64,000 nucleotides of DNA from a virus. Its lineage: Duplodnaviria > Heunggongvirae > Uroviricota > Caudoviricetes. The stretch lies in IMG/VR virus record IMGVR_UViG_3300017585_000052, one strand, 5' to 3'. Positions 4,760 through 64,000 of this stretch are shown here, piece after piece; position 1 is the stretch's first letter, and every line of letters starts with the position of its first letter. Position numbers and translations under genes: made by a program. Below the pieces are notes generated by a model. It worked only from the letters and a program-made list of their open reading frames with translations. It ran no database searches and was not told the origin of the DNA.

Positions 4760-5312
4760 AAATACTTACGCAGCAAAACAGTTCATGAAAGCGTATAATC
4801 AACAGTTAGATAGTCTACAAAAAAGGTTGTCTAAATTGGTTGAGAAGATAGCTAAAGAAACTGTTTCTCGCGTTCAGGACTATATAAGAATAAATTACTA
4901 CGAAATGTACCCAGAAGGGGATAATTATGAGCGACTTGGTATGAATGGCGGTTTTATGGGAGCCATAACCTATGATTTTGACCCGTCAGGGCCAAGCGCT
5001 ACAATTTATTTTGATGCTTTCAAACTTGTATTTGGGCATAAAGGCAGCAAAGTTTTACCATCGCATATTGAGGCTGGACAACATTTCACGCAAGGATTAT
5101 ATGACTATATGATGCTCGGAGAATGGCCTTCGGGAAAACAATCAAACACGGTGGCCCCAAACTTTACTGGCCTTAATACGTATGGTGAAATGGATGACGC
5201 TATAACAGACTGGCTGAATGATTATATATCTGATAGGGTTTGGCAAGCTATGAGTGACTCTGGTTTATATATGTCTAAATCAAGCTTTGTACACGTTTGG
5301 AGTAATGGATAA
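4737..5312 (+). CDS. hypothetical protein
   Basis: Start taken at the internal ATG preceded by GAGGGTGAA. Overlaps the previous gene in another frame. Confidence 0.45.
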   Translation: MSSSTKLKNTYAAKQFMKAYNQQLDSLQKRLSKLVEKIAKETVSRVQDYIRINYYEMYPEGDNYERLGMNGGFMGAITYDFDPSGPSATIYFDAFKLVFGHKGSKVLPSHIEAGQHFTQGLYDYMMLGEWPSGKQSNTVAPNFTGLNTYGEMDDAITDWLNDYISDRVWQAMSDSGLYMSKSSFVHVWSNG

Positions 5313-8300: not shown

Positions 8301-11300
8301 GAAGCCGTCAATGTTGTATTGGGCGGTATATCTAAAGCTGCCAACCATTTACTTGGAGCCGATGGTATTGGTGGATTATTCAGTGGATTTTTGGACTTCA
8401 AGGTCGTACTTGAAGGAATAAACAACGGCATGACTAAAACTGTTGTAGGTTTTACAAAAGGTGCAAGCGCGTCAACTATTCTCGGCAATACTATTGGAAC
8501 CATGGCAAAACAATTTACTGCTGCTGGTGGTGGAATTACTGGCATAGTTTCTGCAATAAGTTCTTTTGTCAGCTTGCATCCAGCAATAACTGCCGTTGCT
8601 GTCGCACTTGGAGCAGCATATGCAGCATACAAGATTTGGGATGCAAACTTTAATCCCGAAACAAAGATTGAAAATGCCAAAGAAGCGTACCAACAGTATG
8701 CTGACGAAATTACCGAAATCAACTCTTAGATTGCAGAGCTTGAAGATAAATCCGAGGCAATAACTTCGCAAGAAAACTTGACCTAGGCTCAAAAAGATTA
8801 TAATGTCGAGCTTGAAAAGACTATTGCCAATCTCAAAAATGAAAAAGCCGCCAAAGAAGAAATGCAACTCACTGAATTGCACAATTAGGCTTCGGCAGAG
8901 GGGGACGAGGCTCGTTCTACAAGTTTTTGGACTGGCAAATCAGAATACGATTCTACCCTTCAAGATATAAAGTACGCGCGTACAGATAAAGATAAATCTG
9001 AGGCAGAAGAAGAAGCCAATGATTTAATCGACACATACGAGAGCTACATAGATACTTTAGATGCTGTTGTCGAGGCTGGCGGGGAACTTACTGACGAGGA
9101 AAAAGAAAACCAAGAACTGTATGAAGAACGCATACAAACCCTGCTTATGCTCACTGACGAGACACAAGCATATGCAAGAGCAATAACCAATAATGATGAT
9201 ATTGCATCTAAATTGTCTGAGGTAAAGCAGAAAATAACAGACAATGCCACCGCTTACCAAAAGGCCCGCGAGGTAATTGAACAAGCCGTCACGGATGAAA
9301 TCAATGCTTCTGGTAAATAGTATACCGCGCAAGAGCGTGTTAATTTAATATACGAGGCTACCGAGCAGATTTTAAGCAACTACGGCTTTACACTCCAATC
9401 TGTCGCAGATAATAATGACACCGTTACAGACTCCTATTCTTCGCAAGCAGAGGCAATGGAGTCATATATAAGCACAATCAAAAGTCTTGAATCGAGCGAA
9501 GAAACGCTTTAGACTGCATTTAATGAAATGACTGAAAGCGGAGAAATTCAGGCAGATACAATGTCTGATTTGATTGCCGCTTATCCAGAACTTGCTAACT
9601 CCGTTGAAATCGTTGATGGAGCAATGCAGATTAACCTCCAAACTCTTAGCGACACAGCTTCTGCACAATACGAAACCGCAGCAGCAGCAGCAGAGGCGCA
9701 AGCCAATAATACTGAAGCGGTAATGAATCAAGTCTCTGCTCGACTGGAATTATATGGTATAGAGGCGCAAGCACTTTCGGCACTTGCTGGCGGTCAAATG
9801 ACTGCAAATCAAGCGGCGTTACAAGCGGCAGACTAGGCGGTAAAGACTGGACAAATCTCCGAAGATGAGTATGATATAATCTACAATGGAGCCGCTGCTG
9901 CCGCCGAACAATATGTTGGCCTTGCAGAAGGCATGGCGCAAGCTCAAAAGAATATCGAAGCTCTTAGAGCAAAAGCAAGCGGTGGGCTTTCTTATACTGG
10001 TTCTAAAAGTAAGTCATCTGGCAGTTCCTCTGGGAGCACGGCAAAAGACGAAGCCTCCGATGCTCGTAAAGAGGCGTATGACCTCGAAAAATCTCGTTAC
10101 GAGCAAACCCAGAACGAATTAGAACTTGAAAAATCTAAACTTGAAGCGCAACAAGATTAGATTGAGAATGAAAAGTCTGCGTTAGAAATAAAGAAGTCTG
10201 AATTAGAGTTACAAAAAGAACTCAAAGAGCAACAATTAGAAGTATTACAAGATGAAGAAGATTCTTTGGATAATATCTTGGATTTGATTAAAGAAATGAC
10301 AGACCAAGATTATGAGAACCTAAAGACTAATCTTGAAAACATATCTGACTATATTGACACATTCCGAGATGTTCTTTCTGACGTTAAAGACACCTACGAT
10401 GATATTGTAGATGACGCTAAAGAAAAATTAAAAGCAGAAAAAGAAGCCGCTGATAATCAAAAGAAGCTACAGGAGAAATCTCAAAAGGTTGCAGAAATTC
10501 AAGCTCAACTTGCAGAGATTCAATTCGATGATTCTTCTGATGCACAGAACAAGAGGGTAGAGTTGACTTCACAACTGAATGAAGCCATGCAAGACTTAAA
10601 TGACGAAGCGTCTGATTAGGCTTACGACACTGCTGTTGACGCCTTAGACAATACGGAAGATAAAGTCGATTAGGTTTTTGAAGCTATTGATACGATACTC
10701 GAATCTTCTCAGGGTGTAATAGAGGAATATGTCAATTATATTTCTGACGTATTACAATCTGACGGTAATTTGTACCAAGCTGCGTTGGCTCAATTTAGTG
10801 CTGCTGACGAACAATCTCGTCAAGAGCTATATAATAGACTACAAGAATATAATGCACAATATGGTGACGGTATCGAAGCTAATGTCACTAAGAAGTGGGA
10901 AGATGCTCTAACTGCATATAATAAGTACGCAGAAGCCACTGGTTCTACCGATACTGGTACTATACGTAATTATATGTAGACTCAGGATAATACTCTAACC
11001 GCAAGCATTAAAACTGATGAGCAAGCTATTAACACTTTAGATAACCAAATTAGCCAGCTTGAAATAGATATAAGCAAATTCGACCAGTCTATTTCTGATG
11101 TTGAGTCTCAAATCAATAATGTAAAATTGGCTTTAGACCAATTAGAGATAGATTATAACGGTCAGGAATTAACTATATCTGGTGTTACTGCTGCCACACA
11201 AGAAGAAATAAATGCAAAGGCTGGTGTAACTGCCGCTACTAATGATAATACAACCGCATTAAATGACAATACAGTTGCACAACAAGAAGAAGAACAAGTT

Positions 11301-21133: not shown

Positions 21134-22339
21134 ATGGGAAAACTTTTGAGAGATGAAACTTATATCGAGCAGATGAACAAACAGAACGCGCTTCTGGAAG
21201 TTCTTGTTGCCGATAAGCTGGCGAGTGCTTCCGCTAATTGGGCAGAAATCGCCAAGATTATTAAGGGCGGTTATGGCTCTTATGTCTACTATCCCGGCGA
21301 CCAGTTCAGCGACACTTGGGCTGACGCTTATGCTACTGGCGGTTCAAAGGAGTACACTTATCCTTGGCACGTTGCATCCCATCGCACTGTTACCCTGAGT
21401 GATGGTGAGACTAAGAGCGGTATGATTATTCAGGCTCACTACGCTCATCCTTTTGGCGTTCAGTTTAGCCATCAGCGTGCTTTCCTTGCTTGCCCCTCTG
21501 GACTTGTTGCTGGCACGTATTATTTCACCATTGAATCTGCTTGGGGTACTAATGTTGCCGCAAACGATGTTGTTTGCTTCACTACTACTCAGTCCGTTCC
21601 GCAGGGCGGTTGTATCGCTGGTTGCTACGGCGCACCCGACCAAGCGAAATCTAATTGGCGTATTTATCTGTATGCCGCTGACCGCACTACGATTCTTGAG
21701 ACTATTGTTCCTACCTTTACCACTCCTGACAGCGGCACAAATCTCGGCACTCAGCATCTGAATAAGCGTGATGGGAACCTGAACTCCACTCAGGAGATGG
21801 CTTACGGTTGGAACCGTTGGTCTACCTCTGCGCTGCGTCAGTACCTCAATAGTTCTGCTGATAAAGGCGCGTGGTGGACTGCACAGGACGAGTGGGATAT
21901 TGCGCCTAACGAGCTTGCATCAAAGGCTGGTTTTATGGCTGGTCTGCCAGAGGAACTCGTGAACGCAATTAAGCCTGTTCAGGTCACTACTTACACCAAT
22001 ACCGTTCAGGATGGCGGCACTGCGGACATTACCTATGATAAGTTCTTCCTCCCTGCATTGCAGGAAATCCATGTTAATCCGCAGATTCAGGGCGAAGGCG
22101 AGGCATGGGAGTATTGGACTCAGGTTTCTGGTTCTGTTACTCCGCTGGCACAATACGGTACTTATTCTCAGATGATTACTTATGCAGTTGAGAATCATGT
22201 TAGTCCGCAGTATGTTCGTTTGCGTTCGGCGAACCGTGGCGGCGCGAATAATACGTGGATTGTCTACTCGTCTGGCTATGTCAACGTCAGCGGCGCTAGC
22301 GTCTCGAATAGGTTTTCGCCGGCCTGCGTCATCTGCTAA
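21134..22339 (+). CDS. retroelement target protein (variable C-terminal domain, probable receptor-binding protein)
   Basis: The C-terminal ~40 codons coincide with the variable repeat. Gene is GC-richer than its flanks. RBS GGAGG; stop TAA. Confidence 0.7.
   Translation: MGKLLRDETYIEQMNKQNALLEVLVADKLASASANWAEIAKIIKGGYGSYVYYPGDQFSDTWADAYATGGSKEYTYPWHVASHRTVTLSDGETKSGMIIQAHYAHPFGVQFSHQRAFLACPSGLVAGTYYFTIESAWGTNVAANDVVCFTTTQSVPQGGCIAGCYGAPDQAKSNWRIYLYAADRTTILETIVPTFTTPDSGTNLGTQHLNKRDGNLNSTQEMAYGWNRWSTSALRQYLNSSADKGAWWTAQDEWDIAPNELASKAGFMAGLPEELVNAIKPVQVTTYTNTVQDGGTADITYDKFFLPALQEIHVNPQIQGEGEAWEYWTQVSGSVTPLAQYGTYSQMITYAVENHVSPQYVRLRSANRGGANNTWIVYSSGYVNVSGASVSNRFSPACVIC
22207..22327 (+). repeat. 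variable repeat (VR) of the diversity-generating retroelement
   Basis: 121-nt match to 23155-23275. All ~15 differences fall at adenines of the template copy (AAC to GTC, AGC or GGC). Confidence 0.8.
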
Positions 22340-22479
22340 TCCCTACCCTAAAAGTGTGATGTTTAATTACACTTTTAGGGAATCCAGCCATGCGAACGCA
22401 TGGCGTATACAGAGTGACGTAAACGGTTAAAATAACCTTAAAAGGTCAATTAAATATTACTAAAACAAACTTGCCATAA

Positions 22480-22526
22480 CTTCTCTTTAGATGTACAAAG
22501 ATACGTCCGCGTTATCTAAAGAGAAG
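22480..22526 (+). promoter_or_regulatory. 13-bp perfect inverted repeat downstream of the target gene
   Basis: CTTCTCTTTAGAT..21 nt..ATCTAAAGAGAAG. A second small hairpin ACACGC/GCGTGT lies at 22554-22570. Could be a terminator or a retrohoming-enhancing structure. Confidence 0.45.
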
Positions 22527-22603
22527 TCTATATATAATTTTCTTTTAGATGTTACACGCAATGCGCGTGTTAAATTTCTATAAATAGATATTTACAAAGG
22601 AGT

Positions 22604-23113
22604 ATGATTATTATGTCAGTACCAGCGCATAGACGTGCGCCGAACAAGCTCACTGCTTTGGTTAAAGCTAGAGAACTTGCTTCTTATACATTAAAAATAA
22701 CTCAAAATCAAAACACGTTCCAGCCTAAAAACGGGACGGTTGTAAGAGATAAAGTGCAGTCATGCGCGGCTGACATATTTTTGCTTGCAAGTGATGCTAA
22801 TGATATTAACGTAAGTAAGAATCCTGATTTGCTTGAAAAGCGTCAGGAATTGCAAAAAGAAGCATTATATAAATGTAAGGCGTTAAAGAATCTCATTAGT
22901 TTAGCTGGTATAACATATCATTTGCGTGATAGACGGATTGCCTATTGGACGAGCTTAGTGGAAGAAACGTATGCGTTGCTAAGAAAGTGGTATTTAGCCG
23001 ATTGTAATAGATACGGCGCACCACTTACGCAAGAAAATGTTGTTGGCGTTTCAAAGAAATCTAATGCAAATGATATAAGAGCAAGCTCTTATGAAGATAA
23101 TTCTCCCTTTTGA
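22604..23113 (+). CDS. putative accessory variability determinant (Avd)-like protein
   Basis: Basic, helical ORF between the variable and template repeats. This position is typical for Avd. Confidence 0.4.
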   Translation: MIIMSVPAHRRAPNKLTALVKARELASYTLKITQNQNTFQPKNGTVVRDKVQSCAADIFLLASDANDINVSKNPDLLEKRQELQKEALYKCKALKNLISLAGITYHLRDRRIAYWTSLVEETYALLRKWYLADCNRYGAPLTQENVVGVSKKSNANDIRASSYEDNSPF

Positions 23114-23154
23114 AAGGATTGATTATATGATTAAGGAATGGAGTGAGGCTATGT

Positions 23155-23275
23155 GCAGAATGTTCGTTTGCGTTCGGCGAACCGTGGCAACGCGAATAAT
23201 ACGTGGAATGTCAACTCGTCTGGCAATGTCAACAACAACAACGCTAGCAACTCGAATAGGTTTTCGCCGGACTGT
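23155..23275 (+). repeat. template repeat (TR) of the diversity-generating retroelement
   Basis: Adenine-rich (AAC runs) counterpart of the variable repeat, immediately upstream of the reverse transcriptase. Confidence 0.8.
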
Positions 23276-23467
23276 ATTTTCAAAAATGGCCTATCGACAA
23301 GCATCTAATGATTGTACGGCGTGTGGGAAAACGCAGGGAGTCTCGCTACCATGTTATATCTGAAATTAAAATCTACGGATTAAACAGATAATAGATATAA
23401 CGAAACAATCATGGGGTGATGTCGTTGACTTGCGAGTTAGTACGGCTATACACATCCCATCAATTAT

Positions 23468-24571
23468 TTGTTTTTTCTAAATTCGAGGTGTTTACTCATC
23501 GAAAAGTTAGAACTAATTAGGAAGTATGGAGAAATAGATGTTTGTGATTTTGAGCATCTAATGGAATCAGAACACAAATGCGTAAAAGGTGTATTATGGA
23601 AAGGCTCTGTCGCGGCTTTTGATTTGAACAAAATTGCTTTGCTCAAAAAGTTGTCAGATGAATTACATAATGACACTTATCGCCCACTTCCTCCAAGAAC
23701 TGTTTTAATCACCTACCCTAAACGCAGAGTTGCTGTCAGCATAGCATTTCGTGACAGAATCTACCAAAGAAGTCTAAACGACAATATTGTCTATCCTCTT
23801 ATGACAAGAAGTTTCATTTATGATAACTGTGCTTGCCAAAAAGGAAAGGGTTCAGACTTCGCAAGGGGTAGATTAAAATGTCATATTCAGAAATGCTTTC
23901 GTAAAAATGGCATGGACTTCTGGGTATTGCAATGTGATATAAAACACTATTATGATAACATGAGACATGACACGACAGAAGCATTATTCCGTGAGCATTT
24001 ACCACCACGTTACGGGAATATGGTCGCTAAAGTTCTTAATGAACAGTATCAAGGTGATGTTGGGTTTAATCCCGGTAGTCAAATGATACAAATAGCGGGT
24101 ATCTCTGTTTTGGACAAGTTAGACCATAAGATTAAAGAGCGGATGCACATTAAACATTATTTGAGATATATGGATGACTTTATTTTGATGCACCCTGATA
24201 AAGAATACCTGTTACAATGTAAAAAGTGGATTAACGAGGAATTGTCCAAGATAGGTCTGTCTCTACATGAAAAGAAAACAAAACTGTATCATATCTCAAA
24301 AGGAGTTGACCTTTTGGGATTCCATTATAAACTTTTCAACACTGGAAAAGTAACAATGTCCGTACTTGGACAAAATGTAAAACATGAACGCCGCAAACTT
24401 CGCAAAATGGTTAAACTTGTTAAAACTGGTAGAATACCAAAAAGTAGACAACCATTAACCAAACAAAGGTTAGATATGTGCTATCAATCATGGAAAGCAC
24501 ATATAGCTCATGGAAATTCTCATAAGTTACAAGTACGAATGGATAAATTCTACAAAGATTTATGGAGGTAG
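23468..24571 (+). CDS. diversity-generating-retroelement reverse transcriptase
   Basis: Motif C YLRYMDDFIL (YxDD). GSQ variant of the GxxxSP motif, typical of retroelement reverse transcriptases. GVDLLGFHY. Annotated stop is TAG. Confidence 0.85.
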   Translation: MFFLNSRCLLIEKLELIRKYGEIDVCDFEHLMESEHKCVKGVLWKGSVAAFDLNKIALLKKLSDELHNDTYRPLPPRTVLITYPKRRVAVSIAFRDRIYQRSLNDNIVYPLMTRSFIYDNCACQKGKGSDFARGRLKCHIQKCFRKNGMDFWVLQCDIKHYYDNMRHDTTEALFREHLPPRYGNMVAKVLNEQYQGDVGFNPGSQMIQIAGISVLDKLDHKIKERMHIKHYLRYMDDFILMHPDKEYLLQCKKWINEELSKIGLSLHEKKTKLYHISKGVDLLGFHYKLFNTGKVTMSVLGQNVKHERRKLRKMVKLVKTGRIPKSRQPLTKQRLDMCYQSWKAHIAHGNSHKLQVRMDKFYKDLWR

Positions 24572-31547: not shown

Positions 31548-32441
31548 TCATTCTCCTGAGACATTTGCAATTACCGTATCTGCGCCAGAAACAGTTACCC
31601 AACCATGAGCAAGACGGGCTTCTGCCTCTTTCATATCAATAAGCTCCTGAGTGATAGATTCAGACAGCTTTTTGTTGGCCTCTGCCTCGGCCTCTGCCTC
31701 GATACGTTTAACCTCCGCTTCTGCCTCTGCTTCGATAATCTTAACATCAGCCGTTGCTTGGGCTTTTGCCTTTTCAGTCTCAGCCTGTGCAAGCGCAGTC
31801 TTGGTATTCAGTTCGGCGGTTTCGGCCTCTTGCTTTGCCTGTGCTTTGGCCTGAATCTTTTCAAGAACGGTAGCGTCAGGAGTTGCGTCAATAATGAGTG
31901 CGCTGCTTACATTGATACCGTATTCAGAACTTAACTTGTTATTTAGATATTCAGTGATTGCGGCGTTCACTTCTGCACGATTTTCAAGATAAATCTCGCT
32001 CACTGTATAGCGCTGCAAAACTTCTTTAGTATAAGCGATAATATCATTCTGGATATAAGATTCCATAAGAGTAGCACCGCTCATGCCGTTGAACTTACTG
32101 TAAAGTTCTACAACACGGTCAGGCATAAAGTTATAATTTACTGTTAGATTGATGGAAATAATCCCGTCATTTGCAGTAGCGTCAATATGCCAATCTTGAT
32201 GCTCTTTTTCGTTATAGTCAGCAGGGTCATCCGAGAATACGATACGCTGTTGACTAATCGGGAAAGTAGAAACGTGCTTCAAAGGCGACATGAAGTGCCA
32301 ACCCTGACTAAGCGTAGTCTGCTCAACTCCCTGCGCCGAATAAACAACGCCAACATAGCCAACAGGAACGCGCTCAAAGCAGAATAGGACAATAAACAGT
32401 GCGATAATAGCGGCAACAATGCCGCCAATGATTTTCTTCAT
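31548..32441 (-). CDS. SPFH/band-7 (prohibitin/HflC-like) membrane protein with EA-repeat coiled coil
   Basis: N-terminal transmembrane helix, an SPFH-like core, then AEAEAEVKRIEAEAEAEA repeats encoded by a tandem nucleotide repeat at 31650-31800. Confidence 0.65.
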   Translation of the reverse strand: MKKIIGGIVAAIIALFIVLFCFERVPVGYVGVVYSAQGVEQTTLSQGWHFMSPLKHVSTFPISQQRIVFSDDPADYNEKEHQDWHIDATANDGIISINLTVNYNFMPDRVVELYSKFNGMSGATLMESYIQNDIIAYTKEVLQRYTVSEIYLENRAEVNAAITEYLNNKLSSEYGINVSSALIIDATPDATVLEKIQAKAQAKQEAETAELNTKTALAQAETEKAKAQATADVKIIEAEAEAEVKRIEAEAEAEANKKLSESITQELIDMKEAEARLAHGWVTVSGADTVIANVSGE

Positions 32442-56678: not shown

Positions 56679-56707
56679 ATTATAGCACATCTAAGGGGTA
56701 ATGTCAA
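56679..56707 (-). promoter_or_regulatory. sigma70-type consensus promoter within a ~45-nt repeated element
   Basis: TTGACAttaccccTTAGATGtgcTATAAT. Near-identical copy at 62415-62443. Confidence 0.6.
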
Positions 56708-56730
56708 GGGGTCTGGAAAATATTTTTAGA

Positions 56731-57444
56731 TTATTCCAGAGCCGCCAACTCCGACTGGATATACTCTAACTTTAGTTGACTAAATCGTACTTGCCAGTCG
56801 TAATATTCTGTTTGATAAGCCTCGCAAGAATCAGCAGACTGCGTGAGATTATTTAATTCTTCTTGCGCTGCATCTAATTCATCTAAAAGAAAATTCTCAT
56901 ATGCTTGTCTTTTAGATTCTGCGAAATAATTCGCGTATTCATAATATAACTCAGTAATTTCAATGGTAGCTTTGTTCTTCGCTAATCCATTTTGTTTTCT
57001 GATTTTGACCGCTCCTTCTCCACAAGTGTACACATAAAAAGCATCCTCTATCGTATCTGTCTCGTCTATTGCATACTTTAGGATAACAGCGCCGCATTTA
57101 ATGTTTGTTTCTGCATTATATAAGTCGCTCTTTGTTACTTTGATTCCTCTTTCTTCGAGAAAGTTAAGAATGTCTTTTGTGGAGCCAACTTGCATTAGAC
57201 CAATATAATTTGTTCCAACTGACGGGTCGAATCTGGATTCATGGTAAATAATTGCCACAAGAGCCGCATAAGGCACTCCGTATTCTTCGCTGATTGTTTT
57301 GGTGTATTCCTTTAATTCATTATCCCATGTTTCATATAATTCATACTTGTCTGAAAAGTCTGCTGCTTTTGACGAGACTACTGTGGTGCATATCGTACAT
57401 GACACCATGATACAAGCCAGAATGGTGCATAGTAGTTTTTTCAT
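56731..57444 (-). CDS. secreted lytic transglycosylase (SLT domain)
   Basis: Signal peptide MKKLLCTILACIMVSC..SSKAA. SLT motifs YHESRF and GLMQV. Confidence 0.75.
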   Translation of the reverse strand: MKKLLCTILACIMVSCTICTTVVSSKAADFSDKYELYETWDNELKEYTKTISEEYGVPYAALVAIIYHESRFDPSVGTNYIGLMQVGSTKDILNFLEERGIKVTKSDLYNAETNIKCGAVILKYAIDETDTIEDAFYVYTCGEGAVKIRKQNGLAKNKATIEITELYYEYANYFAESKRQAYENFLLDELDAAQEELNNLTQSADSCEAYQTEYYDWQVRFSQLKLEYIQSELAALE

Positions 57445-57541
57445 AATACCAAAATCCTTTCGTAAACAAAATAATGGGACTAACAGTTGACCCCGCTAAT
57501 CCCATTTGTTATATATTAAACACACCAAAATCCAGATAAAA

Positions 57542-57665
57542 TAGACGCTGTTTCACTTATGCGCTCTAACCAATTAAGCTAACTCCCGTTCGGTCGGGAG
57601 TGGACGGCTCGAACGTCCACCTCATGCTCCTGATAGCAATGTGATTATGTCGCTGTAAGCGTCTA
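57542..57665 (-). ncRNA. YrlA-like Y RNA (permuted tRNA mimic), copy A
   Basis: Minus-strand order: closing stem TAGACGCT...AGCGTCTA; T-arm GGACG-TTCGAGC-CGTCC with consensus T-loop; 7-bp acceptor-like hairpin ACTCCCG/CGGGAGT; D-arm GCTT-AATTGGTTA-GAGC containing GG. Preceded by the conserved box AAATAAATAAGTTTTAGACGCTTACAGCGACATAAT. Confidence 0.5.
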
Positions 57666-57673
57666 AAACTTAT

Positions 57674-58075
57674 TTATTTGTTTCCGTCAGGTTTCTTATT
57701 CTGTTCTTCGCAGTATTTATCCCAATCTTTCTTTAGATTCTCCGCATCTTTCATCGTAGAGTCACCAACAACCGTAACTGTAATTGTGCTGTCAGAAAGT
57801 TTAGCGTCAATAATTTGAACACCAAATTTTCTCAAAACATTCTTAATTGCACTCAAATCATTACTATTCAAGAATGAAGCGATAACCTCTTGTTCTTCTT
57901 CCTCTGAACATTTCATCCACCTATTATAAGCGGAATTAGTAATGTAAATTTGCCAGTTGTGGTCTTGAATTGGAACCTTTTTAATGGATTCAATTTTGTC
58001 AGCCACACTTGTATCAATGTTATTTAGAATATCATTGAATAGTGTGACAGGCGTTGATTCATCAATCCATGCCAT
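57674..58075 (-). CDS. hypothetical protein
   Basis: Start at the second ATG with RBS AGAGGTAAAAAT. Lies between the two Y-RNA-like elements. Confidence 0.45.
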   Translation of the reverse strand: MAWIDESTPVTLFNDILNNIDTSVADKIESIKKVPIQDHNWQIYITNSAYNRWMKCSEEEEQEVIASFLNSNDLSAIKNVLRKFGVQIIDAKLSDSTITVTVVGDSTMKDAENLKKDWDKYCEEQNKKPDGNK

Positions 58076-58090
58076 ATTTTTACCTCTCAT

Positions 58091-58216
58091 TAGACGCTTT
58101 GTTTCTTTTAGTTTTATCCAATTAAACTATACACCCTCTCGGATGCAGCGGGACTCGAACCCACAACTCCTATTTTGAAGATAGATGAAGAAAAATTATG
58201 TCGCTGTAAGCGTCTA
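58091..58216 (-). ncRNA. Y RNA-like tRNA mimic, copy B
   Basis: Same conserved box and closing stem as copy A. Anticodon-arm-like hairpin TCTAT-CTTCAAA-ATAGG; T-arm GTGGG-TTCGAGT-CCCGC; 7-bp hairpin TGCATCC-GAGA-GGGTGTA with a GNRA loop; D-like hairpin AGTTT-AATTGGATA-AAACT. Confidence 0.5.
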
Positions 58217-58244
58217 AAACTTATTTATTTAATTATCAAAGTAG

Positions 58245-58317
58245 AACCGCTACCCGAACTTGAATCGGGAATTAAGGATTAGAAGTCCTTTGTTTTATCC
58301 AGTTAGACTATAACGGC
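58245..58317 (-). tRNA. tRNA-Arg (anticodon UCU)
   Basis: Hand-folded 73-nt cloverleaf. Acceptor GCCGTTA/TAGCGGT with G1:U72 and U5:G68 wobbles. D-loop AACTGGATA; anticodon arm AAGGA-CTTCTAA-TCCTT; T-arm CCCGA-TTCAAGT-TCGGG. One D-stem mismatch. Confidence 0.55.
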
Positions 58318-58364
58318 ATATCGCCTCTTGATTTCTAAGAACCTCTGTCCTTTGGAACAATTTA

Positions 58365-58393
58365 ATTATAACATACTTTCTTAGATTTGTCAA
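58365..58393 (-). promoter_or_regulatory. sigma70-type consensus promoter upstream of tRNA-Arg and the Y RNAs
   Basis: cTTGACA, 17 nt, TATAAT in minus orientation, about 45 nt upstream of the tRNA 5' end. Confidence 0.6.
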
Positions 58394-58426
58394 GAGGAAA
58401 ATTGTGAAAATTTTGTGAAATAATTG

Positions 58427-59266
58427 TTACTCTTTCTCGTAGTCACAGTAAACGAGGTCATCAATATAATCACGTTCCTGCGAGAAAACTGGAATCTCTG
58501 TGTCCATTTTCCACTTGTTATCGCCACAAATATCTTTCCAGTAGCAACTTCCACGTTTCAACATGGTAGCAACCTCATTCCAGTTGACATTCTTCTCAAT
58601 CAATAGCTTTTCTTGCAACTCGTCACAGCTTAGACCCTCTATTTGTTTATGAGAGAAATTATCCTGTGCAAGCATCAAGATAGAATTGCGAGAAGCGTCA
58701 TTCTGCCGCCAAATGAAGTAATTACAGACTTCTTCACGAGGGACATTAAATGCACGAGAATCAAAACACAAGCCTTTCGCAAGACAATCATCTAACGCTT
58801 GTTCATACTTTGCGCCATCATCGGTCAAAGTATCTTTGTCGCAGAGCTTTCCACTTTTGTCAAACCAAAGATTCTGATAGCCCCAATAATCGAACGCCCT
58901 GTTAAATTCCAGAGTTGCCATTGAAGCAGATAGAGATACAATCTTATTTAGATTATTCGCAAAGAAAGCATCGTAATCTAAGGATTGATAGTCAACCACC
59001 AACAAAGAAATCTCGTCACTTTGAGTATATCCAAAGACACAACCTTGAATATTCTCGCACAAGAATTTCATAGTTGACTGCATTGCATAACCAAAAGAAC
59101 TATCCCAAGGTTTTGCTAAATGCCTTGTAAAAGAGGAACCAGCCCGTGCGTCAACACGGATAATAACAGGAGTACGATGCGTCAGATAAATCCTATAAGG
59201 TTTCTCATAATAGGATTTCATTCTATCCTCTAAAGATAATCCCATATTATTCATCCTCCGAGTCAT
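58427..59266 (-). CDS. Thg1-like protein (3'-5' nucleotidyltransferase, tRNA-His guanylyltransferase family)
   Basis: VIIRVDARAGSSF matches VVVRLDGRNFH; FGYTQSDEISLLV matches the AYGQSDEYSF hallmark; NYFIWRQNDASRN matches DYLSWRQAD. Confidence 0.75.
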   Translation of the reverse strand: MTRRMNNMGLSLEDRMKSYYEKPYRIYLTHRTPVIIRVDARAGSSFTRHLAKPWDSSFGYAMQSTMKFLCENIQGCVFGYTQSDEISLLVVDYQSLDYDAFFANNLNKIVSLSASMATLEFNRAFDYWGYQNLWFDKSGKLCDKDTLTDDGAKYEQALDDCLAKGLCFDSRAFNVPREEVCNYFIWRQNDASRNSILMLAQDNFSHKQIEGLSCDELQEKLLIEKNVNWNEVATMLKRGSCYWKDICGDNKWKMDTEIPVFSQERDYIDDLVYCDYEKE

Positions 59267-59819
59267 CTTTAATATCTTGCCAAGGCGTTAATGGCTCATA
59301 AATTCCCCAACGCTCAATAGCTCCACTGTAAATAGAGCGTTTATCGGTAACAAAATTGTCATCAAGAGCCTCAATCAACTTCCGTCCAGAAAGGATAATT
59401 TCTTCGTCACCGAACAAACGATAATGCAAAGAATCACCAGTAATAGAGATTGTACATTTGTACACATATAGATGCTTAGAGAATCTAAAGAGAAATTTTA
59501 CAATCTCCCTGTTTGTCTGAGCCATATCTCTGTCACGCAAATCACCGTTAATAGCCACCAAAATTGGTGAACTGTCAAGAAGCCCATGATGACAGTCGTA
59601 ACGATAATCCATGCGGTTTGAGTTTCGATTATACTCGTCACTCGATGAAGAACGATTATGGTCTTTGGACGGGAATACATAATAATTGCAACCACCCTCT
59701 GAGCCTGTAGCGACAGGAGGCATATTACGCATTACCGTATTAACAGCATAGATTCCTTCGTCAGTCGTGCGGAAACTACCAACTTCAATCAAGCCATTAA
59801 CGTGCGTCCAAATACTCAT
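59247..59819 (-). CDS. hypothetical protein
   Basis: RBS GAGGAA; no recognisable motif. Confidence 0.45.
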   Translation of the reverse strand: MSIWTHVNGLIEVGSFRTTDEGIYAVNTVMRNMPPVATGSEGGCNYYVFPSKDHNRSSSSDEYNRNSNRMDYRYDCHHGLLDSSPILVAINGDLRDRDMAQTNREIVKFLFRFSKHLYVYKCTISITGDSLHYRLFGDEEIILSGRKLIEALDDNFVTDKRSIYSGAIERWGIYEPLTPWQDIKDDSEDE

Positions 59820-59834
59820 AATTTCCTCACTTAG

Positions 59835-60569
59835 TTAAAACTTGAATATTTTTCTGAGCAAATCTAAGAAAGAACAGGATTTCTTTTCTTCTTTAGATTC
59901 TTCAACAATGGGTTCATCTTCGGTCTTTTCTGGCGTATTGATAATGGACGGATAATCAACCCATGCGTAGTTTACATCGCAGTTTCCTGAGATTCCACTG
60001 ACTTTATGTTGACTATCATACTGCCACATAGTACACTCAACATCTGGTTTTGTGGCTCTGTAAGCAGCAACCCATAAATCAATTCCAGCTTCACGAATAC
60101 GGGTCATATCAATATAATTCTGAGAGAAATATAATCCAGTATAAAGACATGGATAATATCCTTTAGATTTAATTTGATTAGCTCCGTCAATTATCCAGCT
60201 TGTTAATGAATCTTTATCCACTGACGCACTTTCATCAGTTTCAATATCCATAACAACAGGATAATCTAAGTGATATTGGCCTATTGCTTCAAAAGTTCTA
60301 TCAAGCTCTGCTTGGAATGTATCATGGTTTGTTGCATAACTTATGAAATACACTCCAAACGGAATACTAAGGCGAGTACATTCGCTCATATTTCTACTTA
60401 GATATGGGTCGGTATACATACCGCTTTTCTTTGTGGAAACTGCGCGAATGATAATCCCATCAATAGGAATTATTCTCTAATCCTTAATGATTCCACCGCT
60501 CTTTAGAGCATCGAAATCAATCTGACCCTGATATTTTGAAATATCAATGACATTTTTTATATCAGACAT
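59835..60569 (-). CDS. GH25 family lysozyme (muramidase) with recoded in-frame TAG
   Basis: Start at plus-strand 60567-60569 with RBS AGAGGTG. N-terminus MSDIKNVIDISKYQGQIDFDALKSGGIIKD, then TAG at plus-strand 60477-60479, then RIIPIDGIIIRA...LWVAAY...WQYDS..G.SGNCDVNYA, which are GH25 motifs. Confidence 0.7.
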
Positions 60570-60613
60570 ATAACACCTCTATATGTAACGTGGGCTTTCG
60601 CCCACAAAGAAGA

Positions 60614-62155
60614 TTACACAGTAATCTTTGCGAAATTAGCGGACATGAGGACTTTCAGCATTGCCTCATAGGGATTGTAACCAATCGTCTGCAAGACATC
60701 ACGGAAAGTGCTTGCCGCACTGCCACTGAACGCCGTAACACCCTTGTCATTATAGTTCTGGTGAACCGTATTCTGACGAGAGTTTACACACCAGAACACG
60801 CAAGCGGGGAGAGTATAGCCATACTTAGCGTACAGCTTAGTCATAGCAGCGTGATAGGTGTTTGCGCCATTCAGAGAATTACCCCAACCGTAAGAACGAC
60901 TTCCGCTATGCGGGTCAAACTCAAAGTCGCTAATAATGATAAGCGCTTTCGGCAAATCATCATTAGAGAGGTGATTCTCTACGGCAGTTTTCAGAATCAG
61001 ACGGAACGCAGATTCAAGGTTGGTAGAACCGCCCCAAGGAGCAGCAACGGCCTTACGAACATTACCAAGCAGAGAGTTGTCACCAAGCTCAATCCAATGC
61101 GGATTGCTCTCGAACGTCATAAACAGGTTATGATACGCTCCGTGGTTACGCTCTGCAAAATAAATTGCAAGACCAAGCGCGGACTCAATGGGCTTACCAG
61201 ACATAGAACCAGAAGTATCTGCCATAATAACCACATTGTTGTTGCCTTCAATGTAATTCGGCAGTGCCTTCCACTGCGCCTCAACAACCTCATCAATCTC
61301 ATTCTGATTAGTCTGGCAGTTATAGTAACTGCTATTCCAAGCAGAACGTATAGAGCGAGAACTCATGTACTTGCCAACAAGGTCGTAAGGATAGAGCGTA
61401 GAAGCGTTAATCTTCTTCGTTCCAGTCTTGACACCGTTCATAAACTCACCAAAACCTTCGGGGTCGTGCTTGGTGAAACTATGACGGTACAGCGTCATCG
61501 CCTTAGAGGGAACAGCCTGATAGTCAATGTTGTTCCACTGACGAGCAGACATCTTAACCTCAGTGACGTTGATATACTTACGCAGTTTGGACAGAGCCTT
61601 CTGGTAAGCATAAGCCTTCAAACCGAGGTGACGCGCAGTCATGTGACCCAAATTGACAGTCTTGCGGGACGAAGTGTTGACAGACGGCAACCACTTCGCC
61701 ATAAGCGAAACAGGCTTGCCAGCCTTATAGTTGGCAATGTCAGCCTCAAACTGACTCTTTACCAACTTCCAAATATCACCCTCAATAGGAGTGCCAACGA
61801 AGATGTAAATATCATCCCAGCGTCCATACTCAGGCAGATACTTTAGATTCTTACGCATAGTATCGGGATGGTTATTGGCTACCCACTTCAACATCTCATA
61901 AGAAACGTCACGTTCGCCCATGCCCTGCCCCCTGATGCTACGGGTATAAAAAGCCAGTTTGATTGCCAATTCAGGATTCTCATTCCAAGCGTTTGCGAAC
62001 ATATCCTGAACGTCATTCAAGCGACCACGCATACCACCAGCCAGCGAGAAAAGGTCAAGAACCTTAGAGCCAGTGGTATTCATGGCAACAGCGCCGTTCT
62101 CGGTGTACTTCATCTTAGTCTGATTGCGGACTGCATTGGTAAAATTGTTGCTCAT
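60614..62155 (-). CDS. rsr: Ro60/Rsr-like protein (TROVE-like N-terminal region + C-terminal vWA domain)
   Basis: 513 aa. C-terminal vWA with MIDAS DTSGSMSG. Ro60-like size and architecture. Y-RNA-like tRNA mimics lie 2.4-4.6 kb away on the same strand. Confidence 0.5.
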   Translation of the reverse strand: MSNNFTNAVRNQTKMKYTENGAVAMNTTGSKVLDLFSLAGGMRGRLNDVQDMFANAWNENPELAIKLAFYTRSIRGQGMGERDVSYEMLKWVANNHPDTMRKNLKYLPEYGRWDDIYIFVGTPIEGDIWKLVKSQFEADIANYKAGKPVSLMAKWLPSVNTSSRKTVNLGHMTARHLGLKAYAYQKALSKLRKYINVTEVKMSARQWNNIDYQAVPSKAMTLYRHSFTKHDPEGFGEFMNGVKTGTKKINASTLYPYDLVGKYMSSRSIRSAWNSSYYNCQTNQNEIDEVVEAQWKALPNYIEGNNNVVIMADTSGSMSGKPIESALGLAIYFAERNHGAYHNLFMTFESNPHWIELGDNSLLGNVRKAVAAPWGGSTNLESAFRLILKTAVENHLSNDDLPKALIIISDFEFDPHSGSRSYGWGNSLNGANTYHAAMTKLYAKYGYTLPACVFWCVNSRQNTVHQNYNDKGVTAFSGSAASTFRDVLQTIGYNPYEAMLKVLMSANFAKITV

Positions 62156-62382
62156 TTAGATACCTCTCTTAAATTATTATTGCTGTTCGTATCTTTATGG
62201 TAGTGACGAAACACTGAAACGCCAAGTCTTGTCATTTGGTAGACAGTATCATGATAGAATCCCTCGTAACTCAACTTACCGCCAGCCCTCACAATAGCGT
62301 CTGCATAAGCAATAGCTTCTTCAAGAGGAAAGCCAATCATTTGCATCTCGCTAATGAACCTTACGCGCCTCATGTTTCTCAC
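62152..62382 (-). CDS. hypothetical protein
   Basis: ATGA overlap with rsr; RBS AAGGAGTGAG. Confidence 0.45.
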   Translation of the reverse strand: MRNMRRVRFISEMQMIGFPLEEAIAYADAIVRAGGKLSYEGFYHDTVYQMTRLGVSVFRHYHKDTNSNNNLREVSK

Positions 62383-62443: not shown

Positions 62444-62847
62444 GGGGTCTTGGAAATATTTTTTGGATTATATAAATATTTTCCCTCGGAATCTTTGGCT
62501 AATGCTTGATAGCATCTAACGATTCCGATATATAGCCTCATAATCCCACTATAAGTTGTATAACTTGATAATTTTACAACTACTTTATCTTTTGGGATAG
62601 AGTTATAGTTTACATAAGTATAAACATCAAACTCGTCACCCAAAAGAACTTGTAGCATAAAGTTATCAATATTGTGGAATTTGAAAACTCCAACATTGTA
62701 ATCTATTGTGTAATCAAATTCCACATCATGCCAATCTAATCCAGTGAGTAAGAGATTGAACTTATCTGCAAAATCTTGCTCGTATAACTCTTTGTCATCT
62801 CTTACTTTCTTATCTGAAATCTCAAAATGATTCTGTAAATCTCTCAT
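62440..62847 (-). CDS. hypothetical protein
   Basis: Intact ORF. Confidence 0.45.
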   Translation of the reverse strand: MRDLQNHFEISDKKVRDDKELYEQDFADKFNLLLTGLDWHDVEFDYTIDYNVGVFKFHNIDNFMLQVLLGDEFDVYTYVNYNSIPKDKVVVKLSSYTTYSGIMRLYIGIVRCYQALAKDSEGKYLYNPKNISKTP

Positions 62848-64000
62848 TCAAACAAAGTCGTAAATGTTTTACTTGCTTCGCTTCTGACATCTTCTTCGAG
62901 ATATACACAGGCGAACAACGGATTTCCCTTTAATTCCTCGCACATCTTCACAAGCGGGTTTGACGTACTCTTATTAAGAAGTGACTGCTTATAATCTCCG
63001 CAGAAGAAGATTCTGGAATCTTTGCCAAGTCTTGTCCCCATAAGTTTAATTTGACTCTCAGTTAAATCTTCCGCTTCGTCAACAACAGCTATTGTTTCAT
63101 TGTACGTTGTGCCTTTTAAGTAATAAGGTATCTGCGTTTCTAATATGCCTTGTTGACGCAATCTTTCAAGCTCATAACTTCCACCGTCAAGCTGTTGTTC
63201 AAGAGGCTTAAAGAAGTCACCAGTTTTTTCAAGAAACTCTCCGGGAAGATAACCAACCTGTGCGCCTTCGCCCTTTGCCTCACGGATTCCTAAGATTCTC
63301 GACTGTTCGCCCTTTTCTTTAACCTTATATAAGGCCATACGAAGCGCAAGCATTGTCTTGCCAGAACCACTACTGCCTAATAGCGCAACTATTGGAGTGT
63401 CTTTATTATTAAGGGCATCTAAAGCGCAACGCTGATGACCATTCAGACCTTTGATAATCTTGCTCGGAGGCAGCTTTAATCCGACAAGATTCTCACCGTC
63501 AAAGCGCATTTCCGTTGTTCTTCCAGCCGCAGTATTATTTATAATAAGGTATTCATTTCTGTATAGAGTAGAATAATCAATACTTGCCATTTGAGCGTTG
63601 ATTTCTTCCTCATTGCCAGAAATAGTTACATAACCTTTATAAATATCATTTGCAATACTATTAAGAGTAGCAGTCTTTAGATGGAAGATTCTTTTTGCGA
63701 TATTATAGCAATTAACATCGTCAGTAACAAATGTTATATCTCCACGCTCAATATTGAGAAAATAAGCCTCTGTTACAATTACAGCGTCAGGAGTTAATTC
63801 AAGGCCGCTCTTTGCAATCTCATTGCAGATTCTATCATATTCATAGTTGCATACGATACAAGAATCATCATTTGCCGCTTGAAAAGCTCTTGCTAATTTT
63901 CTTGCAAAGTGTTTAGTTTCTTCGTCTTTTCTTCCAGAGGTTTTAATAGATTCAATTTCTTCCAGCGTCTTATGACTGCAAGCAAACCTCTATTCAAAAC
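62844..64000 (-). CDS. PIN-PhoH (YlaK-like) ATPase, 5' end beyond the window
   Basis: PhoH motifs LGSSGSGKTMLA, VVDEAEDLT and FFCGDYKQ. The frame continues upstream of the annotated Met into a PIN-like domain (..ITFVTDDVNCYNIAKRI..) through an in-frame TAG at plus-strand 63990-63992, and runs off the window. Confidence 0.65.

Follow-up and report, generated by a model that had tools for sequence, protein, structure and literature searches.

A Thg1-like protein of the bacterial TLP type, with an intact active site, encoded beside a tRNA gene, Y-RNA-like elements and a Ro60-like protein in a phage

The best solved relative of the phage protein described here is a bacterial Thg1-like protein (TLP), BtTLP of Bacillus thuringiensis (4KGK/4KGM). 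Its primary function is given as 5'-end repair (PMC3701042, PMC3061083), and its activity is abolished by the substitution D75A (PMC3701042). Linkage of kinase, ligase and Thg1 genes has been described in bacteria (PMC2904730), and the RNA-repair cassette of Anantharaman et al. (2010) combines a polynucleotide kinase (PNK), a phosphoesterase, a ligase and Thg1. Phage T4 possesses a toolkit for restoring damaged tRNAs, its Pnkp and Rnl1 enzymes, which heal and seal breaks in the anticodon loop. Ro60-type proteins and tRNA-mimicking Y RNAs are also linked to RNA repair or decay: their partners are RtcB ligase and RtcA cyclase in the Salmonella rsr-yrlBA-rtcBA operon, where the genes adjoin one another, and PNPase in the Deinococcus Rsr/Y RNA/PNPase system. 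As to phages, Thg1 was discussed as a possible anti-defence RNA repair function in 2010 (PMC2904730), and it stands alongside TROVE and tRNA-like partners in a 2021 inventory of RNA repair in jumbo phages (PMC7824862). The family has its own entry, PHROG 4717 'tRNA-His guanylyltransferase', and is represented in 156 deposited phage genomes (INPHARED), in at least 585 stretches of IMG/VR and by thousands of proteins from metagenomes; examples are gp143 of Bacillus phage Bc431v3, a gene of Pseudomonas phage 201phi2-1 and gp59 of Fusobacterium phage FNU3. The novelty implied in the initial annotation, whose author was not aware of such a pairing being characterised in phages, is thus not supported, and the gene presented below extends a known annotation; it does not define a new kind of system.

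The gene lies in a 64-kb stretch of phage DNA which was analysed at its full length and is referred to as the window. The source phage is a gut phage. When positions 56700-62200 were compared with deposited phages by megablast, nothing matched, which indicates that there is no close cultured relative. The features relevant to the analysis are as follows:

57473..57506, minus strand: intrinsic-terminator-like hairpin closing the RNA cluster (14-bp stem, then a T run)
57543..57664, minus strand: Y-RNA-like element 2 (Rfam YrlA 19.9 bits; fold z-score -3.15)
57674..58090, minus strand: orf138, a small unknown ORF between the two Y-RNA-like elements, conserved in loci L004, L005 and L010
58092..58215, minus strand: Y-RNA-like element 1 (Rfam YrlA 31.5 bits, E 1e-4, below gathering)
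58244..58317, minus strand: tRNA-Arg(UCU) (ARAGORN; Rfam RF00005, 54.6 bits)
58365..58393, minus strand: sigma-70-type promoter, TTGACA-17-TATAAT with extended -10 TG (12/12 consensus matches)
58427..59245, minus strand: TLP coding sequence, probable 272-aa form from M8 (maximal ORF to 59266, 279 aa)
59247..59819, minus strand: orf190, an unknown protein with conserved counterparts in L004, L005 and L010 and a weakly conserved one in L089
60614..62155, minus strand: Ro60-like protein with DUF2828 and DUF7788/vWA (Pfam; PHROG 850 'RNA-binding protein', 8e-128)
62844..63989, minus strand: PIN-PhoH-like gene (Pfam PhoH) with an in-frame TAG at codon 19

The ORF at 58427..59266 (minus strand) matches the Pfam Thg1 profile PF04446 with 80.1 bits (cut-off 29.2), its residues 14-176 spanning positions 2-130 of the 130-position profile and hence the whole catalytic domain, and it matches PHROG 4717 at 2e-78. 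Among solved structures BtTLP comes first (4kgk, E 1.4e-60, 208 bits), followed at a distance by an archaeal TLP (4e-7) and human THG1 (3otb; 4e-4, 23 bits). The Thg1 assignment proposed from the letters alone is therefore sound. The second profile that had been suggested, PF14413 (Thg1C), does not match the window protein, a faint match being recorded only for a relative with 80% identity; NCBIfam searches with the TLP, orf190 and the Ro-like protein gave no match. Judged from its sequence, the ORF encodes a Thg1-like 3'-5' polymerase of the bacterial TLP type whose active site is intact.

Translation probably starts at the third in-frame ATG (M8, position 59245), since this codon follows a GGAGG by 9 nt and the database relatives are 272 aa long and share the same start. 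It lies 1 nt after the stop of orf190, so that the two genes are probably translationally coupled. Comparison with L004 and L005 yields a dN/dS of 0.05-0.10, as is characteristic of a gene under purifying selection. The upstream gene, orf190, has no Pfam, PHROG or NCBIfam match and is specific to this lineage. We considered it as a general partner of the TLP and rejected the idea, because the gene directly upstream of the TLP differs in nearly every lineage; in two of them it is a kinase and in one a CCA-adding enzyme.

The active-site residues support the assignment. The RVDARAG motif supplies R37 and D39 and the QSDE motif S83, D84 and E85; in the alignment these occupy the same columns as R28/D30 and S74/D75/E76 of BtTLP (numbering of PMC3701042), and the carboxylates D39/D84/E85 align with D29/D76/E77 of human THG1. 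Both motifs had been put forward as Thg1 hallmarks, and both do align with the catalytic residues of Thg1 and TLPs. The yeast residues involved in activation (Sc K44, S75, N161) and in nucleotidyl transfer (R27, K96, R133) are conserved as K52, S83, N194 and as R37, K108, R171, respectively, the equivalences of K52, R37 and R171 being read from the alignment and those of K108 and N194 from motif position only. Across 20 aligned homologues there is no variation at R37, D39, K52, S83, D84, E85, K108, R171 or N194; in a 15-sequence alignment K52 and E85 are nearly invariant and the other seven strictly so. We predict from these residues that the TLP is catalytically competent.

The protein resembles BtTLP in several further respects: identity is ~41% in a structural alignment, the carboxylate triad is the same, the QSDEIS and WRQ.DA..NS motifs are shared, and HINNLYN, the Thg1 signature whose place is taken by ASRNSIL in the phage protein, is absent from both. 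It differs from BtTLP in having an insertion of ~30-40 residues and in being virus-encoded, beside RNA genes. Eukaryotic Thg1 (human THG1 3OTB, yeast, C. albicans) has the palm fold and the carboxylates in common with it, and presumably the two-step 3'-5' addition chemistry, but identity is only ~18-20% (E 4e-4) and, again, HINNLYN is missing. Being nearer to BtTLP than to eukaryotic Thg1, the phage protein would thus be a repair-type TLP and not a bona fide Thg1. An AF2 model of moderate confidence (pLDDT 68.8) contains the polymerase-like palm of the solved Thg1/TLP structures, and its top 32 Foldseek matches are all Thg1 or TLP proteins, 4kgm being first (E 7.6e-23, target-normalised TM 0.79). 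The insertion (about aa 125-166) is predicted to form a helical hairpin, differs in sequence from one phage homologue to another and is missing from BtTLP and from the protein of Bacillus phage BSP38.

Between the TLP stop codon and the tRNA gene lies the promoter, which drives the tRNA and Y-RNA cluster and recurs in L010. Its position (58393..58365) implies a leader of about 40 nt, so that the tRNA is not initiated at +1; and since the cluster has a promoter of its own, co-expression with the TLP is not implied. The tRNA-Arg(UCU) has wobble pairs G1:U72 and U5:G68 and discriminator U73, and CCA is not encoded. The promoter-driven tRNA with its G1:U72 pair beside the TLP is therefore as initially described (ARAGORN, Rfam and the 12/12 promoter agree). 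The special relation suggested between the enzyme and this wobble finds no support in the comparison: position 1 is A in L004 and L005 (95-97% TLP identity) and G in L010 (80%), so that G1:U72 is not fixed, the two closest relatives encoding A1:U72. Pairs 6:67 and 7:66 covary between the window and L010.

The two Y-RNA-like elements reported downstream of the TLP and the tRNA are likewise real, as judged by sub-threshold YrlA matches and covarying stems. Element 1 has a closing stem (AGACGCUU/AAGCGUCU), a T-arm, a 7-bp acceptor-like stem with a GAGA loop and a D-arm; the predicted fold and a motif/closure search make it a permuted tRNA mimic. Element 2 shares the 5' motif and the 3' closure of element 1 and has a T-arm, a 7-bp stem and a D-arm, and the closing stems covary across copies and relatives. 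Both fall below the gathering score of Rfam YrlA (RF02553; 69), the tRNA-like core alone being matched, so that the elements seem to be built like YrlA and yet stand outside the family by the Rfam criterion. Similar elements occur within tRNA arrays near the TLP in L011, L016 and L073. The intervening orf138 has no family match in Pfam or PHROG. As for the Ro-like protein, neither PDB sequence searches (no useful match) nor Pfam TROVE (no match) revealed its kinship, and fold comparison alone was effective: the AF2 model (pLDDT 87.3) has Ro60/TROVE proteins as its top nine Foldseek matches (E 1.5e-7 to 1e-5, TM 0.5-0.6). A TROVE ring with a vWA fold is thus predicted, and the protein is presumably the partner of the Y-RNA-like elements. 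This arrangement recalls those of Salmonella and Deinococcus, although here the company is a 3'-5' polymerase and a kinase/HD protein, and the connection is one of gene order.

The order PhoH, Ro-like gene, TLP, tRNA array, SLT is conserved across relatives whose TLP identity ranges from 97% to 56%. The syntenic relatives carry 12-13 tRNAs directly downstream of the TLP where the window lineage has one, and the acceptor stems of those inspected are fully paired. In the near-identical L004 and L005 a polynucleotide-kinase/HD gene lies just past the point where the window ends, ~4.8 kb upstream of the TLP; in L004 (4237-5166) it matches AAA_33/KTI12 plus HD and PHROG 505 polynucleotide kinase. 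A tblastn search of the 64-kb window with all members of the neighbour families found no RNA ligase, PNK, CCA-adding enzyme or phosphoesterase, and no RNA ligase was found in the L004 flank. Compared with the cassette of Anantharaman et al. (2010), the locus thus has the PNK and lacks a nearby ligase. The parallel with T4 is limited in the same way: kinase, ligase and phosphoesterase do recur near phage TLPs, but T4 mends anticodon-loop breaks, whereas a TLP rebuilds missing 5' nucleotides, and the window has no ligase. Pfam matches in 20 large window ORFs were confined to replication, nucleotide-metabolism, DGR and integrase genes. Stop-codon recoding was considered for the TAG in the PIN-PhoH-like gene and discarded, TAG being an ordinary stop in 19 of 73 window ORFs and no suppressor tRNA being present.

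How far does this arrangement extend within the family? The deposited PHROG 4717 genes are 30-49% identical to the window TLP and also reside in large tRNA-bearing phages. In cultured FNU3 and BSP38, no tRNA or Ro-like gene occurs within 6 kb of the TLP; unlike theirs, the window TLP heads a tRNA/Y-RNA cluster and comes after a Ro60-like gene. Across 27 lineages, tRNAs are found within 1.5 kb of the TLP in six (the window lineage and five others), and in 15 no tRNA lies closer than 10 kb; nor does tRNA density rise towards the TLP, staying level from 0 to 10 kb (0.19, 0.13, 0.11, 0.16 and 0.20 per kb). That phage TLPs generally adjoin tRNAs is therefore rejected; the adjacency is lineage-specific. 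Genes of RNA repair recur near the TLP across lineages: within +/-10 kb, and with no matched control for any of these counts, we found a PHROG 547 phosphoesterase in 9/27 lineages, a polynucleotide-kinase-like AAA_33/KTI12 protein in 7/27, an RNA ligase (PF09414) in 7/27, and a CCA-adding enzyme and a metallophosphoesterase in 5/27 each. The kinase directly adjoins the TLP in two other lineages. Such neighbours are typical of phage early and nucleotide-metabolism regions.

Taken together, these data lead us to favour, as a reasonably probable explanation, that the TLP is a templated tRNA 5'-end repair enzyme within a set of clustered RNA-maintenance genes. These would comprise, in order, the polynucleotide kinase/HD gene, the PIN-PhoH gene, the Ro60-like protein, the TLP, the promoter, the tRNA and the Y RNAs. 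By homology with BtTLP and archaeal TLPs, one could envision that the enzyme binds a tRNA-shaped RNA whose acceptor-stem 5' strand is short by at least one nucleotide, uses ATP or GTP to activate the 5'-monophosphate, or takes a 5'-triphosphate directly, and then extends the 5' strand in the 3'-5' direction, with the 3' strand serving as Watson-Crick template, until the stem is complete again. The cluster as a whole might keep phage tRNAs, host tRNAs or both usable during infection. The recurrent kinase, RNA ligase, CCA-adding enzyme and phosphoesterase neighbours lend support to this role, and of the functions initially proposed tRNA 5'-end repair is the one best supported, by these neighbours and by the likeness to BtTLP. 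That the substrates are 5'-damaged tRNAs, that the purpose is the one just outlined and that the kinase cooperates are points we infer. No anti-phage nuclease known to us shortens tRNAs from the 5' end, and the damage to be repaired is accordingly hypothetical.

Other explanations deserve consideration. The TLP might work on, or with, a Ro60-like/Y-RNA particle rather than on ordinary tRNAs. It may restore the 5' end of the Y RNA, at a recessed closing stem or at a 7-bp stem cut by RNase P; or the tRNA-like module may recruit it to RNAs held by the Ro ring. A span of about 5 kb holds the Ro60-like gene, the TLP, the tRNA and the Y-RNA-like elements, a grouping that persists from 97% to 56% TLP identity; the Ro60 fold is supported by AF2/Foldseek, and similar elements sit inside tRNA arrays near the TLP in L011, L016 and L073. 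Both window elements have the 7-bp acceptor-like stem, and in vivo RNase P cleaves the Mycobacterium smegmatis YrlA, which has a stem of this type, and the RNA acquires CCA (PMC4201824). Yet in an intact permuted Y RNA this stem is loop-closed and offers no 5' end, and a tblastn search with the window Ro-like protein found a Ro-like gene in the flanks of only 10/92 TLP loci, or about 3/27 lineages (the syntenic relatives L004, L005, L011, L012, L015 and L016, plus L090), so that the link between TLP and Ro is not general and co-location within one phage lineage may be mere inherited gene order. We consider this explanation unlikely; its most elaborate form, a viral ribonucleoprotein in which the TLP is docked on or maintains the Y RNA of a Ro60-like particle and rebuilds RNA 5' ends, seems very improbable.

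It is also rather doubtful that the protein acts as a true tRNA-His guanylyltransferase, adding G-1 to a phage or host tRNA-His that lacks it. This is the name-giving activity of the family, most deposited phage homologues are so named, and TLPs can add G-1 opposite C73 (PMC3061083); moreover, the TLP-bearing loci L044 and L075 have a tRNA-His without an encoded G at -1. Against this, a search for such a tRNA, suggested at the outset, found no tRNA-His in the 64-kb window, an incomplete genome, or in the 12-13-tRNA arrays of the syntenic relatives; with no substrate in view, non-templated G-1 addition is unlikely. The TLP phages L070 and L086 encode both G-1 and C73 in their tRNA-His, bacterial hosts normally encode G-1 (PMC3061083), and the TLP, which lacks HINNLYN, has a repair-type enzyme as its closest relative. 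Still harder to defend is a role in maturing the phage's own tRNA-Arg(UCU) by replacing a weak or mis-processed position 1, as in mitochondrial tRNA 5'-editing. The tRNA is immediately downstream, the window and its 80% relative L010 both have G1:U72, with covariation at pairs 6:67 and 7:66, and templated repair would write A1:U72, exactly what L004 and L005 encode. But G:U is a standard pair and no mismatch, the closest relatives keep the TLP despite encoding A1 and so need no editing, and no 5'-trimming activity was identified; editing of mismatched phage tRNAs in the mitochondrial manner is rejected, given the paired array stems and the encoded A1:U72. Finally, the shrinkage of the tRNA array from 12-13 genes to one and the in-frame stop in the neighbouring PIN-PhoH gene could suggest that the TLP is a passenger or decaying gene without a role in the phage. 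Its intact catalytic residues, its low dN/dS and its start, which has a good Shine-Dalgarno sequence and is coupled to the upstream ORF, make this scarcely credible.

A search of the literature returned no published assay of any phage TLP, and apparently no virus-encoded 3'-5' polymerase has been tested biochemically, even though its members are very frequent in large phages. At the present locus a span of about 7 kb holds one tRNA and two tRNA-mimicking Y RNAs together with an intact TLP, a Ro60-like protein and a kinase/HD gene, which makes it a compact and convenient case. Were a particle of TLP, Ro and Y RNA to exist, it would parallel the Ro/Y RNA/PNPase degradation machine, with a 3'-5' polymerase in the place of PNPase. 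If the favoured explanation of tRNA 5'-end repair during infection is true, it would point to host-inflicted or incidental tRNA damage that has not yet been described as an anti-phage mechanism.

The ORF at 58427..59266 (-) encodes a Thg1-like protein (TLP); sequence analysis could not make this family assignment any more secure. The product matches the whole Pfam Thg1 profile (PF04446; 80.1 bits, cut-off 29.2) and PHROG 4717, "tRNA-His guanylyltransferase" (2e-78). Among solved structures, the Bacillus thuringiensis Thg1-like protein (BtTLP, 4kgk; E 1.4e-60) scores best, well ahead of an archaeal TLP (4e-7) and human THG1 (4e-4). The RVDARAG and QSDE motifs, on which the initial annotation had based its family claim, fall exactly on R28/D30 and S74/D75/E76 of BtTLP and on D29/D76/E77 of the human enzyme; the carboxylates in these proteins bind metal, and mutating them abolishes BtTLP activity (PMC3701042). 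An alignment of 20 homologues shows no variation at R37, D39, K52, S83, D84, E85, K108, R171 or N194; with 15 homologues this holds for all but K52 and E85, which are nearly invariant. Like BtTLP, the protein lacks the HINNLYN motif of true Thg1 and has ASRNSIL in its place. Only Thg1/TLP proteins are significant structural matches of its AlphaFold model, whose confidence is moderate (pLDDT 68.8), and the stretch from about residue 125 to 166, an insertion relative to BtTLP that varies among phage homologues, is predicted to be helical. Translation probably starts at M8 (ATG at 59245), which lies 9 nt after a GGAGG and 1 nt after the stop of the preceding ORF, orf190, and which fits database relatives of 272 aa.

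The TLP gene lies in the following minus-strand array.

Gene order from 64000 to 57400 (- strand)
PIN-PhoH
two small ORFs
60614..62155 (-), DUF2828/DUF7788/vWA protein
GH25 lysozyme-like ORF
59247..59819 (-), orf190
58427..59266 (-), TLP
consensus promoter
tRNA-Arg(UCU)
58092-58215 (-), Y-RNA-like element
57674-58090 (-), orf138
57543-57664 (-), second Y-RNA-like element
terminator
SLT transglycosylase

The order PhoH, Ro-like gene (the DUF2828 gene), TLP, tRNAs, SLT is held in relatives at 97, 95, 80 and 56% TLP identity. Elsewhere the window, which belongs to a tailed-phage genome, encodes DNA polymerase III alpha, primase-helicase, Cas4-like nuclease, SSB, ThyX, dUTPase and DNA methylases (Pfam), as well as an integrase and a reverse transcriptase (PF00078; 23468-24571, +) downstream of a DUF6273 target-like gene (21134-22339, +); the layout of this pair, within 21134-24571, is suggestive of a diversity-generating retroelement. 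No close cultured relative was found among deposited phages, and the nearest DNA polymerases are those of human-faecal phage contigs and Clostridioides phages. SPFH/Band-7 (prohibitin/flotillin-like) genes recur in this phage group, at 31548-32441 (-) in the window and at 7989-9521 in the TLP locus L011, with the Ro-like gene on one side and TLP on the other; in Fusobacterium phage FNU3 a "prohibitin" gene is the third one downstream of TLP. In PIN-PhoH, codon 19 is an in-frame TAG (63990-63992, -), conserved in three independent samples (the window and the near-identical loci L004, at 5279-5281, and L005, at the same site) and replaced by Glu in a 68%-identical L011 homologue. The interval from this TAG to the Met at 63590 contains no start codon, and the gene could be truncated, internally started or read through. 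TAG is a common stop in the window (19/73 ORFs, mostly on the + strand of the left arm).

The reading of the TLP surroundings as a Ro60-like protein with Y RNAs is supported by modeled structure and RNA folding together. Pfam and a PDB sequence search gave no sequence-level match of the DUF2828 protein to Ro60; the top nine structural matches of its confident model (pLDDT 87.3) are Ro60/TROVE proteins. The two "tRNA mimics" proposed from the sequence are convincing as structural units, although their Rfam YrlA scores, 31.5 and 19.9 bits, fall short of the threshold of 69. Each opens with UUUUAGACGCUUACAGCGACAUAAU, closes with the complementary (A/C)AGCGUCUA, and holds a T-arm, a 7-bp acceptor-like stem-loop and a D-arm inside the closing stem. 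In L010, a relative at 80% TLP identity, the closing stems of three such elements (GACCG/CGGUC, GACGG/CCGUC and GACAC/GUGUC) differ by compensatory changes. Y RNAs adjoining Ro60 genes in phages have been on record since 2014 (PMC4201824).

Y-RNA-like elements with the shared 5' motif and 3' closure
Window: 57543-57664 and 58092-58215 (-)
L010: 2195-2295, 2676-2795, 2900-3028
Other loci: L011:11605-11722; L016:11258-11373; L073:232-354

Members of this family have the 5' motif (U)AGACNN..ACAGC in common, together with a complementary 3' closure, NNGUCU(A); they are interleaved with tRNA genes, and all score below the YrlA threshold. The tRNA-like core is permuted (T-arm, 7-bp stem, D-arm) in some copies and unpermuted in L010 copy 1, L011 and L016 (ARAGORN "tRNA-???", Rfam partial tRNA). 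The small conserved orf138 has no family match; it is set between the two window elements, overlapping with its start the 3' closing strand of element 1, and this layout is kept in L004, L005 and L010.

In relatives at 56% TLP identity, TLP is followed directly by 12-13 tRNAs, and the array includes a Y-RNA-like element. The count is two tRNAs, with three elements, in L010, and one tRNA, with two elements, in the window, which therefore shows a shrunken tRNA array. At 90 nt, the L010 tRNA-Arg(UCU) (2092-2181) includes about 16 extra nt in the variable region (uuauuagcguaaaagcuauuug), which is unusual for tRNA-Arg. When 92 TLP loci were grouped at 70% identity into 27 lineages, a tRNA was found within 1.5 kb of TLP in 6 and within 10 kb in 12; 15 had none within 10 kb, and tRNA density did not increase towards the gene. 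The pairing is thus meaningful as conserved gene order in the window's lineage, and weaker across phages generally. Some other TLP phages encode tRNA-His (L044:13713-13786, L070:4255-4329, L086:3852-3926, L075:17417-17492). Acceptor pairs 4:69 and 5:68 are U:U oppositions in L044, L070/71 and L086; L070 and L086 encode G-1 and C73, and G-1 is not encoded in L044 (T at -1, U73) or L075 (T at -1, G73). These features could bear on TLP action in those phages. ARAGORN "tRNA-Pyl(cta)" calls, of amber-suppressor type, at L073:8713 and L090:294 hint at TAG recoding there.

All ORFs of the 92 loci were also clustered, and recurrence near TLP was counted per lineage.

Families recurring near TLP (raw lineage counts)
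phosphoesterase PHROG 547, 9 lineages
AAA_33/KTI12 polynucleotide-kinase-like protein, 7 lineages
RNA ligase (PF09414 with PHA02142 OB domain), 7 lineages
GIY-YIG endonuclease, 6 lineages
CCA-adding enzyme, 5 lineages
metallophosphoesterase, 5 lineages
PRPP synthetase, 5 lineages
PhoH, 4 lineages

The gene directly upstream of TLP is a kinase in two lineages and a CCA enzyme in one. Within the window's own lineage, L004/L005 encode a 310-aa AAA_33+HD protein (PHROG 505, polynucleotide kinase) immediately upstream of PhoH; its gene (L004:4237-5166) corresponds to about 100-1000 nt past the window end at 64000, and with the adjoining genes it indicates that the RNA-repair cluster continues beyond the window. 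Just upstream of PhoH, near-identical relatives also encode an adenylosuccinate synthetase, and a PHROG 388 "nucleotidyltransferase" lies at L004:82-762. The recurrent neighbours of TLP form the healing-and-sealing company that an RNA-end repair enzyme would be expected to keep, and they fit the linkage, described in 2010, of Thg1 genes in bacteria to genes for polynucleotide kinase, Macro and RNA ligase (PMC2904730). The counts have no matched control, and such genes turn up often in the early regions of phages, which leaves the evidence supportive rather than decisive.

By homology, TLP would be a templated 3'-5' polymerase. Starting from a 5'-triphosphate, or from a 5'-monophosphate activated by ATP or GTP, it would extend the 5' strand of an acceptor-type helix to its full length, with the 3' strand as template; the 5'-phosphate could come from the kinase/HD protein, which could also remove 2',3'-cyclic or 3'-phosphate ends. 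For the physiological role of TLP we lean toward repair of tRNA 5' ends. It is unlikely that TLP acts instead on or with the Ro60-like/Y-RNA particle. Both window elements have 7-bp acceptor-like stems, and in vivo RNase P cleaves Mycobacterium smegmatis YrlA, which carries a stem of this type, and CCA is added to it (PMC4201824); an RNase P cut in the Y-RNA stem would yield exactly the type of 5' end that a TLP acts on.

G-1 addition to tRNA-His, the activity named in most annotations of phage homologues, is slightly less likely still; neither the window nor the tRNA arrays of its syntenic relatives contain a tRNA-His. Maturation of the adjacent tRNA-Arg we regard as quite improbable. This tRNA, its G1:U72 wobble and its 12/12 promoter are as first described; the promoter gives a leader of about 40 nt, so that the tRNA 5' end is made by processing and not by initiation at +1. 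The wobble is not fixed: L010 retains it while pairs 6:67 and 7:66 covary, and L004/L005 encode A1:U72. That TLP is a mere passenger deserves hardly any credence; dN/dS is 0.05-0.10 against two relatives of 95-97% identity, and the gene is therefore under purifying selection.

Deposited phage genomes with a TLP homologue number 156, and most of these genes are annotated as tRNA-His guanylyltransferase; homologues are also found in at least 585 IMG/VR stretches and among at least 7,800 metagenomic proteins. A phage Thg1 was pointed out in 2010 by Anantharaman, Iyer and Aravind (PMC2904730), and the gene was termed unusual in the Bc431v3 genome paper (PMC3601020). A 2021 survey of jumbo phages counted Thg1, CCA-adding enzymes, ligases and kinases among phage RNA repair parts, together with "ROT/TROVE ... 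with a tRNA-like partner" (PMC7824862). The novelty initially attached to the pairing of TLP with tRNA and Y RNAs was thus overstated. We found no biochemical assay of any phage TLP in the literature. What is mildly new is the compact grouping of TLP, Ro60-like protein, Y-RNA-like mimics, tRNA and kinase/HD protein in a non-jumbo gut phage. For phage Thg1 genes the idea of tRNA 5'-end repair, perhaps as counter-defence, was proposed long ago, and it is reasonable to infer that such repair may be the function of TLP here.
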